Assembly: GCA_951406725.2 (NCBI GenBank)
Contig: OX597820.1
Coordinates: 74,214,001 to 74,278,000, forward strand
Length of the DNA: 64,000 nucleotides
Direction of reading: 5' to 3'
From: Octopus vulgaris
Lineage: Eukaryota
Within the stretch, counting starts at the first letter, position 1. Each line of letters begins with the position of its first letter. Under the pieces are notes generated by a model. The model saw nothing but the letters and a program-made list of their open reading frames with translations, was not told the origin of the DNA and did no database searches. Positions 23,430-32,703 of the stretch are shown here, one piece after another. Made by a program: the position numbers and the translations under genes.

Positions 23430-23630
23430 ATCTCTTGAGCACCACCAGCAAAAATATTTTTTTCCTCTGTCTTCCCTTCTCTGGATCTTTCCTTCTCCTT
23501 TGTTTCTGACGAAGAGCTCCGCTCGAAACGTTAAAGCCTCCTTCCCTTCTTTCCTGAGCATCAAATAATATCTTAATTGTTCCACGTCCTCGCATTGCTG
23601 TGTTTTTTTTCTGTGTTTTCTTGTTTTGAT

Positions 23631-24890: not shown

Positions 24891-26404
24891 CTATATATAT
24901 ATATATATACATTCACACACACAACATATACTTACAAACATGCATGCAAATGTATATGTAATTCCACAATGAAACAAGATGATGTGCAAATAAGTAAAAA
25001 ATTTCGTTGAAAATTTAAGCTGGCAAGAGAAATGAGATGACGAAATATTGGTGTCAAATTATCATACTATTCCAGCAATTTCAGTGAAAGGGCCTTCGTC
25101 GCTTACATGCAAAGGGTACTTATTTCATAGACGTGGAGAGAATGAAAGGCAAAGTCGACCACGGTGGAATTTGAACTCAGAACGGAAAGAAGGACGGAAA
25201 AACCACTAAAAATCGTGCTAACGATTCAGGCGGCTGACCGTCTTGAGACGATGGAATGCTGGTTTGGGGTTTTATCCATTATAAACTGAGAAATTAGGCT
25301 ACATAGGAGACTAGAATGTTCTGCGTATTCGAGAAGTGAAAGAAAATAATCTGTCCGTCTGTCTGTCTGTCTGTCTGTGTGTCTGTTGATTGGTTGTTTT
25401 CTGTATGAATATATGGGTTATGATCTGGAAAGTTGTTTACGATGGATACGATATCTTCACATTTGAATTAAATTTAATTTTATTTGTTTAAAAAAAAATA
25501 TTTGATTTGATTTTATTTGCTGCTGGAATCTTTACATAGAGTTGTTTTTCAAGCTGGAATTTGATAGAAAGTTTTGGTTTAAAAAAAAAAAAAAAAAAAA
25601 TTGTGTTAATAAAACAGACATGTTTTCTTACATGGGAATGATGGAGCTATGATGAAGTAGTGCGAAATTTGATTCGCTTAATAAAGACGCATTTTACACA
25701 CAAACATACACAGACAAATCTCACATATACAGACGGAGAAAGAGAGAGAGAGGGGGGGAGTGAGGGGGGAAGGGGGGGAGAAAGTTTGTTCTGGTTTAAA
25801 AAAAATCTCATGCAACAAAAAACGTTTTCATACAACAAAATCGTGACGATATGATGGAGTGATGTGAAATTTGATTCGTTTATTAAGGAATATACACGCA
25901 CACAAACCTGCGTACACACAAGTGTGTGCTTGTGTACACCATATATATATATACACATACATGCCGTATTTATGTATATGCATGTATATATTTTACACAC
26001 ACATACACACACACACACTCATTAGTGGTTTCAGTTGTAGGACTACTGCCATACTGGAGCACCGCCTTAACTTATTTCCTATCAGCAGGAAGATGGTAGA
26101 ATATATGTATGCATGCATACATACATACATACATACATACATAAATACATACATACACACATACATACATATATACATACATATATGAACTTGTCTAGAC
26201 ATGTAACTATATGCACAAGCATACATAAAACAAAACATACAAATCGGCACATATACATGCATACATACATACATGCATACATACATACATATATATATAC
26301 ATACATACATACATACATACATACATACATGCATACATACATTCATACATGCATACATACATACATACATACATACATACATACATACATACATACAAGC
26401 AAAA

Positions 26405-26513
26405 ATACCCTGTTGTCGATGTTGAAATTCCAATCACGGAGCCTTGGATCTAGGTTAGAAATCGACTCTTTATCTATTAGTAAGAAATCTTGAAATAAAA
26501 CTAAATAGTGATA

Positions 26514-26550
<37 letters not shown>

Positions 26551-26697
26551 GTGTGTATGTGTGTGTGTGTGTACTTATGTATGCGTACTAACAATACCAT
26601 GTTGGTGATGTTGAAATTCCACTGAAGGAGCCTTGGTCCTAGGTTAGAAACCGGTTCTTTCTCTATTGGCAACAAATCTTGAAATAAAGCTGAATAA

Positions 26698-26700
<3 letters not shown>
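26405..26700. repeat. Two tandem units of a ~190-bp microsatellite-containing repeat
   Basis: gatgttgaaattcca...ggagccttgg.tc.taggttagaaa.cg..tcttt.tctatt...aaatcttgaaataaa occurs at about 26418 and about 26607. An inverted copy lies at about 32258-32670. Confidence 0.85.
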
Positions 26701-26747
<47 letters not shown>

Positions 26748-26787
26748 TTATTCAGCTTTATTTCAAGATTTGTTACCAATAGAGAAA

Positions 26788-28413
26788 ACCCCCCCCCTCA
26801 CCGCCACCAACCTCATCGTCCGCACACCCGCACCTCCACCATCTACTTCCTTCCCAAGATCCATAAACCCTCTAACCCTGGCCGTCCCATAGTCTCTGCC
26901 TGTAATTGCCCCACTGAACTCATCTCCCTATACCTCGACCGCATCCTGTCCCCCCTAGTCGCAGCCCTCCCATCCCACATACACGACACCAACCACGCCC
27001 TCCGTCTCTTCAATTCCTTTTCCTTCCCTTCCAGCCCCTCACACCTCCTCTTCACCTTAGATGTAAAATCCCTGTACACAGTGATTCCCCACAATGACGG
27101 TCTCCTAGCCCTCCAACACTTCCTCGACCGTCGTCCCGACCCCACCCCCAGCACCCCCACCCTTCTCCGTTTGGCTGAGCTCGTCCTCACCCTCAATTGC
27201 TTCACGTTCGCCGGGGAAACGTACCAACAGGTGTCCGGGGTCGCGATGGGAACTAGGATGGGCCCCAATTTCGCCAATCTCTTTCTTGGCTACATTGAGG
27301 CCCAAGTGTTCTCCCAGTTCTCTGGGCCGACCCCCGAACTATACGGTCGCTATATCGACGACTGTGTAGGTGCCACCTCCCTTTCCCGGGAACGTCTCGG
27401 CCAATTCATCTCTTTCCTTTCCAACTTTCACCCCTCTCTTCAATTCACCTCCACCATCTCCAACACCTCTGTCAACTTCCTTGACATCTCTCTCCGCATC
27501 GATCACCCCTCCAGCTCTCTCACCACCACCGCCTTCTTTAAACCTACGGATTCCCACCTCTATCTCAACTTCTCTTCCTCCCACCCCTTCCACACCAAAC
27601 GAGCCATCCCCTACTCCCAGTTCCTCCGCCTCCGACGTTTGTGCAGCCGCGACCAGGATTTCGAGACCCAATCTCAATACCTGGCCCGCATGTTCAGACT
27701 CCGAGGTTACCCACCCACACTCCTCTCTGATGCCCTCACCCGCGCCCGTCGCATCGACCGCACTACCGCCTTGTCTCCTTCCCCCGCCCACCCCCCAACC
27801 GCACCCCCTTCCCCCTCCTTTTCCACCCCTCTACCCTACCCCTTCGTCGCAAGATACTACGTGCCTTCCGTCGCCTCCAGCTTGATCCCACCACCCGCCC
27901 CATTTTCCCTAACCCACCCCTGTCCTCTTTCAAACGAGCCCGCAATCTGCGTGACCTCCTGGTCCACAGCACCCTCTCCCCTTCCCCCTCAGCCCCACAC
28001 GGATCATTCCCTTGCTCTAGATCCCGCTGCAACACTTGCCCCTTCATCACCAACACCACCGCTGTCACCGGCTCCAACATGCATACTGTACGCATTAGGC
28101 ACTCTTTTACGTGCACCTCGTCTGGCCTTATTTACTGCATTAAATGCAACCTATGCGGGATGCTGTATGTAGGTCAGACGGGACGCCGGTTGTCCGACCG
28201 TTTCACTGAACACTTGAGGGACGTTCGCCTACACTCTTTTCTCCCGTCGCACGCCACTTCCGCTCGGCCGGCCATTCCCGAGATGACATCTCAGTGTTTG
28301 GTCTCGCCCCCCACAATGGTCGCCCACTTTCCAGGCTCCACTTGGAGCAACGCTACATCTTCACCCTACAAACTACCACCCCACACGGACTTAACACAGC
28401 CCCCTCCTCTTGA
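26788..28413 (+). pseudogene. Penelope-like reverse transcriptase + GIY-YIG endonuclease (two frameshifts, N-terminus missing)
   Basis: RT motifs: YFLPKIHKPSNPGRPIVS, TLDVKSLYT, GVAMGTRMGPNFANLF, RYIDD, NFLD, KPTD..YLNFSSSHP, IPYSQFLRLRRLCS. After a shift near 27800: RNLRDLLVHS, CSRSRCNTC, FTCTSSGLIYCIKCNLCGMLYVGQTGRRLSDRFTEH. After a shift near 28240: PVARHF...LEQRYIFTLQTTTPHGLN, stop TGA at 28411-28413. The first ~30 aa of track ORF 26697 come from (TA)n and the fold-back arm. Confidence 0.95.
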
Positions 28414-28417
28414 GACC

Positions 28418-28452
<35 letters not shown>

Positions 28453-28454
28453 CC

Positions 28455-31130
28455 GGACACACCACCCACACACACACACCCACCTACCTCCCACCCACCT
28501 ACCTCCCACCCACCTACCTACCTCCCACACGCCTGTTCACACACACACACATACGTAGACCCATCTACACATTTAATCACACACACTTACAGACACACAT
28601 GCACATACACACACACATACATACACACACGCATACATACTTACACACACACACACACAGACATACATACACACATACACACACACATACATACGCACAT
28701 ACATACACACACACTCACACACACACACCGCACGTACATACCTCACACACACACATGCACACATACATGTAGGCACATACATACATACATACCCACACAT
28801 GCACACCCGTACACTGAATGCACACACACATACACCTTTTTGCATCCAGGCAGCCCCCCCTCTTTTCTGCTTTCCGGTTTTGGCTGATGGATCCTCGGTT
28901 CCCGCGTAGCGGGGCGTTCGAGGCCTTTGCGCTCGCGCGCCTTGGCGCGCGCTGGGGCTCGGTCGGCCCCTTTGGGCTTGCGTTGCACTGCTTGTGCGTT
29001 GTGTGCGTGAGCGCGCTTCGTGTGTGTGGGCTTGCTTCGGATGTGCGCTTGCGTATGTTTGCATACATACCCACACACTCGCATGCATCCCTACCCACAT
29101 ACATACACGCACACCTACTCACACACACACATACACACACACACATACCCGCACACACACACACATACATACATACACACACATACCCACTTCAGACATA
29201 CACACACACAGACATACACCCATACACCCACACTCACACGCATACACACACACACATACACACGCACACGTACACATACACACACACACACCCACATACA
29301 TACATTACACTTGTATACGCACACACTTACATTCATACACACACACACCTACACAGCCATACCCTCACTCAGACACACACATCTACCTACACACACACAA
29401 ACACACACTGACACACACCCATATATAGATACATCTACACACTCACGCCTACACACACACATACACACATACATAAACACACACACATACACATACACAC
29501 ACATACGCACACACGCATATACTTATACACATGCACACACACACACATACATACACCCATATACATACACACACACATACCTACATACTCCTATACGCAC
29601 ATACATACACACATACACACACTCACACAAACATACACACACACATACTTACACACACACTCACCTGCACGCGCACACACATGCATGACAAACACTCATA
29701 CACTCACACTCACATACGCACACACCAACATAAACACGCACACGCACACACACACCTACACTCCCACACACATACACACGCACCTACATACACACACGCA
29801 CGCATACACACGCATACACACATACATTACACACGTACACACACACCTACATACACATGCACACACACACACACACAAACATGCACGGACACACCCAGAC
29901 ATACATACATACACCTATATACACACGCCTACACACCTACATACACACACATATACACACGCCCACACAGCTACATACACACACATACATACACACATAC
30001 ACGGACACACCCATACATACTTACATACATACACCTATACACACACGCCTACACACCTACACACACACATGCACACACACACACATGTACGCACATACAC
30101 ACACATATACGCACACACATATATACCCACACACATGCACACACACACACATACGCACATACATGCACGCATGCACACGCGCACACCTACACGCATACAC
30201 ACACACACACGCACGTACACATACATACATACACACACGCATACATACACCCATACACATACATGCATCCTACACACACATACATACACACTCACACATA
30301 CATACACACACACGCACTCACTCACACACCTGTATGTTCGCGCACACACATGCACATACACACACTTCCCCACACCCACACGTACATACATACACACTCA
30401 TACACACATACACACACACACACACACAGGACATACATCTATGCACACACATATATACACACATACTCACATACATTCATCGGACACACTGCCACCCAGA
30501 CATACACACAGACACACTCACACATCCACACGCACACATACGTACGCGCACACTCGCAGGCTCGCGCACACACGCGTTTGCGCCGGTTCGCGCACGCATG
30601 CGCCCGCATGCACCTCGCCCTTGGATCCGACGAGACCTCCCGCCCGTTCCTGGGATGTCGCGTGTCGTTGGGTTTTCCCACGCCCGTCTCCGCGGGACCA
30701 CTCCTCCATCTTCCCCTCCGCTGGAGTCCTTTTCCTAAACCCCCCCCCCCTTTTTTTTCGTTACACACACGCGCACACATATACACACATTGCTTAAACA
30801 TATACCTCACTCTTACACACATTCAATCTACTCGCCACTAATACTACCACGACACTGGACACACACACACACTACCACTCAACACACGCTGGCACGCTAC
30901 ATACGCCCCCACCCCTTCCCCTCCCTCCCTTCCTCCTTCCTCCCTTTTCTCACTACTGACCTTTGTCTGCTATGCTGCTGCTATGCTGACCACCGTCTCG
31001 CCCTACCTCACACGCCTACACACAGACGCACACACTAACACATACATATATTTTTTGTTTTTTTACCTCGCCTCACACACACACATACACACACGCACAC
31101 GCACACACTCACACATACACACACATCTGT
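28455..31130. repeat. Degenerate (CA/TACA)-rich tract interrupted by two GC-rich islands
   Basis: About 2.7 kb of cryptic CA repeat, with islands at about 28835-29060 and 30545-30760. Confidence 0.9.
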
Positions 31131-31293
31131 TGCGTTACCAACCTTGTCTCCACTCTTTTGCCTTTAAAAACCCACTTTGCTCTTGTTATCGTAAACATCC
31201 GCCTTTCACCATGTGCTTCTGCTAACACCAGCCGTTTTTTTCTCTATCTCCGTTGCCCGCTCCGGGATCTTTCTTTCCTCTCTCTTCCTTCTT

Positions 31294-31330
31294 TATGTTT
31301 CCGACGAAGAGCTCCGCTCGAAACGTCATA
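31294..31330 (+). ncRNA. Hammerhead-like motif at the Penelope 3' terminus (U4C core variant)
   Basis: CCGACGA-A-GAGC(ucc)GCUC-GAAAC-GUC, with a palindromic ACGU stem III. Confidence 0.65.
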
Positions 31331-31417
31331 CCTTCCTGCTTCCATTTCCTGAGCGCCTATTAATAATAATACTGTAATTGTTCCCTTGTTGTTGTTTTTT
31401 TGTTTCCCGTTTGGATT

Positions 31418-31480
<63 letters not shown>

Positions 31481-31481
<1 letters not shown>

Positions 31482-31588
31482 ATAGAGTAGTGGTATGTGT
31501 GTGTGTGTGTGTATGTGTGTATAGAGTAGTGGTATGTGTGTGTGTGTGTGTATGTGTGTATAGAGTAGTGGTATGTGTGTGTGTGTGA
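31481..31588. repeat. Three ~39-bp tandem units
   Basis: tatagagtagtggtatg(tg)n repeated three times. Confidence 0.9.
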
Positions 31589-32287
31589 GTACTTATGTAT
31601 GCGTACTAGTAATATTGATTTAATCGAGACTTGAAGTTTCGCATTCAACAGTTTATTGGAGTAGACCATCAAAGATGACAATGCACGAGTTGCTTCGTTT
31701 GGGGGTTTCGCTAACTCTATTCCGCGACACATCGTTATTCTTCTTGCTACTGTAGCTGTTGTTGTTGTTGTTGATGTAGCTACTGCTACTGCTGCTATTA
31801 ATTTTCATACGTCAACAACATCTGTTGTATTGTGTGGCAGGAGATGACTGTGGGAGACAGTCGCTACTTCAATATATCCGTCAACTTTTCTCTTTTTCTG
31901 ATTGGTTCGACAAAAGCGATGCCGAAATTGTTTCTCCGTTGAAAAAAAATTCTCATTGCTTTAAAATCATGCCTCGTAGGGCGAGTAAAATGCAAGGGAT
32001 TATCAGCCTCCTTTAGTTCTGGGCATCTCAGAAACTATAAATAAATATTGTTCTGAAATTTTGGCAAAAGGCTAGATATATTTTAGGGATAAGTCGATTA
32101 CATGAACCTCAGTTTCTACTGGTATTTTTCTAGGTTGTCTTCTATGAGAATATGAATGTATGTATGTATATATGTTTGCATGTGTGAGTGTTTGTGTGTG
32201 CGTGTGTGGGTATGTATATAAGTATGTATGTTATCTAAGTATAAGTGTATGCCACTGCTGAGTTTTATTTCAAGATTCCTTGCCATA

Positions 32288-32602
32288 GGCGAAGGAGTGG
32301 CTGTGTGGTAAGTAGCTTGCTTACCAACCACATGGTTCCGGGTTTAGTCTCACTGCGTGGCACTTTGGGCAAGTGTCTTCTACTATAGCCTATATATGTT
32401 TGTGTGTCTGTGTTTGTCCCCCAACCAACATCGTTTGACAACCGATGCTGGTGTGTTTACGTCCCCGTCACATGGCGGTTCGGCAAGAGAGGCCGATAGA
32501 ATAATTACTAGGCTTACAAAGAATAAGTCCTGAGGTCGATTTGCTCGACTAAAGGCGGTGCTCCAGCATGGCCGCAGTCAAATGACTGGAACAAATAAAA
32601 GA
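32288..32602 (+). mobile_element. SINE family A inserted into the ~190-bp repeat
   Basis: The host repeat ttttatttcaagattccttgcca| resumes |atagagaaagaacctgtttctaaccta after the SINE tail. Confidence 0.85.
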
Positions 32603-32703
32603 ATAGAGAAAGAACCTGTTTCTAACCTAAATCCAAGGCTACTTCATTGGAATTTCAACATCAGGAACAGGTATGTATGTATGTATGTATGTATGTATGT
32701 ATG

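Follow-up and report, generated by a model that had tools for sequence, protein, structure and literature searches.

A Penelope-like element in the Octopus vulgaris genome is joined to its upstream flank through an inverted copy of that same flank, in the 64,000-nt stretch of contig OX597820.1 analyzed here (hereafter, the window). This copy, the right arm of a palindrome, is a locus-specific reverse copy of the host DNA upstream of the insertion, and not element DNA. From the arrangement of the sequence we favor, with some reserve, the reading that it arose by templated snap-back synthesis during closure of the insertion break of a TA-targeting Penelope-like element. Within the family of this element, fold-back junctions of this kind are a rare by-product, representing ~1% of insertions or fewer, and the norm is plain TA on both sides.

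A TA-centered palindrome of host DNA

The assembly sequence includes two inverted arms of 42 nt each on either side of a 46-nt TA run, which confirms the palindrome with one mismatch described in the sequence-only reading (41/42 positions complementary, mismatch at 26670/26775). Folded as DNA, it yields a hairpin of -58.1 kcal/mol (z -20), a stability equaled by 0/200 shuffles, and among the 49 TA runs of ≥16 nt in the window, only the one at its center displayed an arm score >16. The order at the junction is left arm, TA run, right arm, five filler bases, and a 5'-truncated Penelope-like element (Table 1). Truncated reverse transcriptase (RT) sequence thus does not follow the palindrome directly, as first proposed, but only after the filler, and the far end of the arm meets the element without intervening TA. 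At the point matching the filler and C run of the window, other element copies have only five C, and the four additional C at the window junction are without explanation under the fold-back reading; the window copy also differs from other copies by one C. Rfam searches of the palindrome returned only sub-threshold microRNA-hairpin matches, which were dismissed as chance. Another short palindrome, with 13-nt arms and a 22-nt TA run, was observed at 115–170 of the window, with no neighboring element of the family studied here.

Table 1 Features of the insertion locus (window coordinates)
Position	Strand	Feature	Basis
26404–26511	+	Host repeat, copy A (paralogous to copy B, in tandem with it), with TG/GA repeats and the GTACTTATGTATGCGTACTA motif after it; no inverted arm	83% to copy B, flank match
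26591–26699	+	Host repeat copy B, from an older dispersed family; last 42 nt are the template	Family search
26658–26699	+	Left arm (template); at the mismatch it has the base common in the family	Sequence, family comparison
26700–26745	.	TA run, 46 nt; self-complementary center of the palindrome and 5' part of the target microsatellite	
26746–26787	-	Right arm, inverted copy of 26658–26699 with one substitution (at 26775); carries the left arm's two rare variants	
26788–26792	+	Filler ACCCC between right arm and element	
26793–31422	+	Penelope-like element, truncated at its 5' end; covers 4630 nt of the 6164-nt tandem unit, from unit position ~1548 on	
26793–28394	+	RT core, CX4CX2C linker, and C-terminal GIY-YIG; several frames in the window	Translation, Pfam
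31301–31324	+	Motif resembling a hammerhead core, close to the 3' end of the element	Custom regular expression
31423–31461	.	39-nt TA run where the element's 3' end meets the flank	
31562–31614	+	Downstream flank, 89% like 26546–26596 (copy A tail); natural continuation of copy B	Flank match

The template of the right arm is the end of a host repeat copy (copy B, whose block was also delimited as 26591–26700), from a family with 597 genomic matches to a 35-place pattern. Two variants of the arm are rare in this family: among 100 copies listed of the 597, the G was found in 0/100 and the C in 7/100. A 29-mer including both variants occurs exactly twice in the 2.8-Gb genome, once per arm, which supports the initial proposal of a right arm copied in reverse from flanking DNA. 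Since the left arm carries the family's common base at the mismatch, the change sits in the right-arm copy. The sequence-only reading had itself named a possible objection, namely that the arm might be part of the element consensus; at the point of the right arm, however, element sequence continues in 29/29 other copies, and the arm matches neither these copies nor the tandem unit. Past the element, the sequence is similar to the tail of copy A, so that copy B-(TA)n-(TG)n is the probable order of the site before any event, and the GTACTTATGTATGCGTACTA motif found after copy A also occurs after the element.

The host repeat had further been described as a ~190-bp unit also present at 26470–26510 and 32260–32620. 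Repeat copies do occur at both places, the second as a minus-strand copy at 32602–32674 (88%) with its last part near 32250–32285, but the matching block spans only ~110 nt and a 190-nt unit is unconfirmed; judged by eye, the family extends further upstream of this block. A microsatellite follows the repeat in most of 30 loci. By sequence pattern, the repeat (26591–26699) has a hammerhead-like look, with no match in Rfam, and it could be what is left of an older retroelement. Elsewhere (L157/L158, G000:C1:130638400-130640050), an inverted pair 1.1 kb apart, with arms of ~430 nt composed of host repeat and microsatellite, encloses unrelated DNA of ~780 nt that has TA runs at its borders.

The element and the 5' junctions of its family

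Based on predicted translations, the element is an endonuclease-bearing Penelope-like element, i.e., one with RT and C-terminal GIY-YIG in one open reading frame: a related copy (L032) holds both in a single 883-aa frame, while Pfam searches on pieces of the window gave RVT_1 (E 1.5e-4) and GIY-YIG (E 0.0034), both below Pfam's curated cut-offs. Tandem arrays of ~6.2-kb units were found on C10 and C16, in line with the tandem or partial-tandem organization associated with pseudo-LTRs. The linker in the window translation, CSRSRCNTC, agrees with the CX2-5CxxC motif described between RT and endonuclease in the clades Neptune and Nematis (PMC8557442), and does not distinguish between the two. Compared to its 29 best-scoring copies, the window copy showed 1–5 mismatches in ~1620 nt, and the element is very young; its 1–4 gap bases relative to other copies fall in homopolymers where checked. 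A hammerhead motif in the pseudo-LTR is another trait of such elements; the core-like motif in the window was located with a custom pattern, and Rfam gave no hammerhead match at E ≤ 1.

Several minor features of the family were also noted. By eye, two lengths seem to be favored among the 5' truncations: ~75–95 nt, immediately 3' of the hammerhead-like motif, and ~2350–2500 nt, in a GC-rich stretch (window ~28900–29050). In the arrays at L031–L037, the 3' end motif continues with TATA then CCAC, while insertions stop at TATA, and this TATA could pair with the TA target. A diverged relative, with a 78% match to the element's 3' end, lies at 23489–23583 of the window.

To place the window junction within its family, we examined 225 sequences picked by their 3' ends, window copy included. 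A 5' junction was resolved for 213 of these; the remaining 12 were dropped, either because they gave no alignment or because their 5' end fell beyond, or right at, the limit of the stretch, and five further loci (L252–L255, L258) fall outside the resolved set. The 213 junctions consisted of 145 with TA, 31 with another simple repeat, and 37 with complex DNA, a denominator that is slightly high as at least three calls (L069, L073, L308) lie by eye within the element. Excluding the window copy, 36 of 212 junctions were devoid of any simple repeat, which indicates that TA loss at the join is not rare. The count of inverted flank duplications suggested by the sequence-only reading came to none among these others: a TA-centered inverted flank copy touching the element was found at 0/212 other 5' junctions (95% upper bound 1.4%). 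Since TA flanks the window copy at both ends, as it does in the other copies, the arm is an addition to the usual TA and not an integration signature replacing a target-site duplication (TSD), as had been suggested.

Other palindromes near 5' junctions were considered and rejected. Those at L118, L122, L172 (inner), and L102 were rejected as flank copies, as none turns at a TA run adjoining its template, and their DNA recurs in 2, 6, 11, and 18 loci, respectively; at L118, L122, and L172, palindromes or inverted copies of other repeat DNA (98–99%) stand between the TA run and the 5' end of the element. Three more loci, L067, L302, and L123 (arms 93%, 92%, and 87%), were left out because their palindromes are probably older and of host origin, a matter of judgment for L302 and L123, whose palindrome DNA is found in no other locus. 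Inverted element DNA was present at the 5' junction of two copies (L080, L291), which is the textbook pattern at insertions of Penelope-like elements (PMC8557442).

How the right arm may have arisen

Under the favored reading, the TA tract would have been cut by the element, and cDNA synthesis would have begun at the downstream end and halted after 4.6 kb. The upstream 3' end could then have folded back in the TA run, copied 42 nt of its own strand, and joined the cDNA end (route a), or the cDNA end could have primed on the upstream DNA and copied towards the TA (route b), with templated synthesis closing the gap in either case. Both routes would yield identical letters, and the sequence by itself fits a TA-end or a cDNA-end primer equally. 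Read on the bottom strand, GG-TTC-TTTCTC of the flank corresponds to GG-T-TTTCTC at the join, a difference compatible with either route given a 2-nt slip. A weak possibility is that the ACC of the filler continues the template after a 2-nt skip, which would give a CC microhomology to the C run of the element. By analogy, a polymerase-theta-like enzyme would be the likeliest copying polymerase, the RT of the element being another possibility.

Snap-back synthesis at insertion draws support from the far end of the arm joining the element without TA, from a second locus with the same order, and from the publication of such junctions for L1, R2, and synthesis-dependent repair (SD-MMEJ, see below). 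This second case, a chance find outside the 212-junction count, is an unsampled copy on C11 beside the sampled L335 (L335/L209/L340, G000:C11:41368200-41373250). It reads flank, another element copy in the TA center, TA, a 61/61-nt inverted flank, a 5'-truncated 2393-nt element, and TA; its arm has two occurrences in the genome, is thus unique to the locus, and stops at a TG common to template and element. A primer inverted repeat (TA) is present at the presumed break, and the microhomology at the far join is at best 2 nt after the skip in the window and 2 nt at C11. Arms such as those reported here (23–61 nt) are longer than usual for SD-MMEJ. Overall, a fold-back at the insertion break, as put forward in the sequence-only reading, remains the best single explanation for a flank copy that is locus-specific and foreign to the element, whereas the TSD-replacing signature attached to it does not stand. 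One mismatch in 42 nt is, however, more than expected from the youth of the element, which counts against a single event and needs error-prone synthesis, a consensus error, or an older arm.

An older arm would fit a two-step history, which we regard as possible if distinctly less likely: an earlier break in the TA tract, through cruciform cleavage or an abortive nick, would have folded back and been rejoined to TA, giving flank-TA-inverted copy-TA. The element would later have inserted into the second of these TA runs, with loss of the TA where its 5' end was joined. Element-free scars of this type do exist. At L107 (7280–7370, 23-nt arm) and L194 (C10:56949680-56950015, 55/57), a TA-centered inverted copy of unique flank has TA beyond it and no element at the end of the arm, so that such a product does not require an insertion and route (a) would be available. 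Arms scoring ≥12 were also found at 3/381 other complex-flanked TA tracts (1.38 Mb, elements masked), and 3/213 loci have an element inside an inverted flank pair. Taken together, these scars, the TA-tract background, and the enclosed elements suggest that fold-back at TA tracts occurs in this genome with or without an element at the end of the arm, and polymerase theta is described as repairing TA-repeat breaks in human cells (PMC13645644). A two-step history would nevertheless require two uncommon events, including full TA loss at the join, as at 36/212 of the other junctions. The copied arms of L107 and L194 stop where the template itself reads TA, whereas the window and C11 arms stop elsewhere and touch the element. 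Finally, the background of 3/381 is not above the 16/1902 of a shuffled-pair control, although the 15 control matches printed were all repeat-to-repeat.

A broader and rather doubtful extension is that TA-targeting Penelope cuts, including those that leave no element, are the source of the TA-centered palindromes of this genome (~1% of TA tracts), possibly copied by the element's own telomerase-related RT. As the TA target is self-complementary, the upstream end left by the element could, in that scenario, prime itself.

An artefact, in which a fold-back chimera from library or assembly was fixed in the consensus, appears improbable. The gap bases of the window copy do suggest that the consensus may be imperfect, and a search of sequencing runs yielded no independent run with the junction, none sharing more than 0.17 of the words, but a read-level fold-back would continue along the reverse strand rather than stop at 42 nt. 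Moreover, the arm leads into an element that at its 3' end returns to the flank expected there, and related structures were found at several distinct loci, some with diverged arms (84–96%). It is more improbable still that an ordinary TA-element insertion came first and its 5' TA run later broke, folded back, and was rejoined inside the resected element: the letters would be identical, and TA runs are described as fragile (PMC13645644), but this very young element would have offered little time for such an event at a background of ~1% of tracts. Hardly credible, lastly, is an independent origin of the right arm as an element part or as the stump of a second host-repeat copy placed tail to tail in the TA run, for although the host repeat family is large and tail-to-tail insertions in one TA run do occur (at L089:7393–7422, a diverged relative sits tail-to-tail in the TA run of the element's 3' end), the arm is absent from the element, its variants are found together nowhere else in the genome, and 0/30 host-repeat loci have an inverted copy directly across the tail, the tail-to-tail question being addressed with these 30 loci and the genome-wide 29-mer search. 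The 29-mer count refutes such an origin, barring a donor copy absent from the assembly.

A separate observation concerns L292, where a TA run and a 218-nt element lie within a SINE-like repeat; ~30 nt are directly duplicated there, and the TA is followed by 8 nt of the left end in inverted orientation. Such an arrangement points to possible de novo formation of TA runs at a break.

Relation to published junctions

The closest published parallel comes from somatic L1 insertions, for which a short fold-back inversion upstream of the 5' end was described in 3 cases (0.3%) plus 1 mixed case, with sizes of ~52–220 bp (Nam et al. 2023, PMC10191854, preprint 10.1101/2022.05.18.492429). As described there, these resemble the window locus in their inverted upstream host DNA between flank and insert 5' end, in their rarity, and in their similar size. 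They differ in that the L1 cases occur in somatic clones, whereas a Penelope-like element is involved here and the junction is fixed in the assembly, and in that the turn here is a self-complementary TA tract, while the L1 model has the cDNA end as primer. A cDNA-end priming model is likewise given for the "snap-back" 5' junctions of R2 in PRINT (Zhang et al. 2024, PMC11371274), although R2, as presented in that work, targets rDNA in cultured cells without a microsatellite pivot. The defining trait of L1- and R2-type junctions, an insert reverse-complementary to the upstream flank that adjoins it at that locus, is found at the window locus; the paralogue copy A is without the arm, but is old (83%).

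Outside retroelements, snap-back SD-MMEJ and polymerase theta templated insertions use TA/AT among their most frequent primers (Khodaverdian et al. 2017, PMC5728401), and polymerase theta repair has been reported for breaks in TA repeats themselves (PMC13645644). SD-MMEJ, as documented in the former study, is similar in its hairpin priming at a short inverted repeat adjoining the break, limited synthesis, microhomology rejoining, and an insert that becomes part of an inverted repeat, but is known from nuclease breaks and not from retroelement ends. For endonuclease-bearing Penelope-like elements, the published accounts describe partial tandems, an inverted 5'-truncated element copy, and a microsatellite bias (PMC8557442, PMC3846280, PMC11167929). 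The family studied here is comparable in its tandem units, its 5' truncation, a targeting of TA by which TSDs are masked, and an occasional inverted element copy; the inversions in these accounts are, however, of element DNA, whereas the host flank is inverted here. A literature search, mostly among papers outside subscription journals, returned no report of host-flank inversion at junctions of Penelope-like elements.

The junction type as such is thus already published for L1, R2, and SD-MMEJ, and the window locus represents a further, rare example, probably made at insertion. What it adds is a TA pivot, a demonstrated locus-specific copy, and a measured rarity. The steps by which Penelope-like elements close their upstream junction are left unvalidated in a published model (PMC11167929), and one or two cases leave the integration model of these elements unchanged. 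As with L1 and R2, rare junctions of this kind show that an end at the insertion site is capable of templated DNA synthesis. The element's 3' end running into TA was matched by two exact patterns at 628 and 45 places, i.e., at least 673 clean 3' junctions in the genome, which makes a full census possible.
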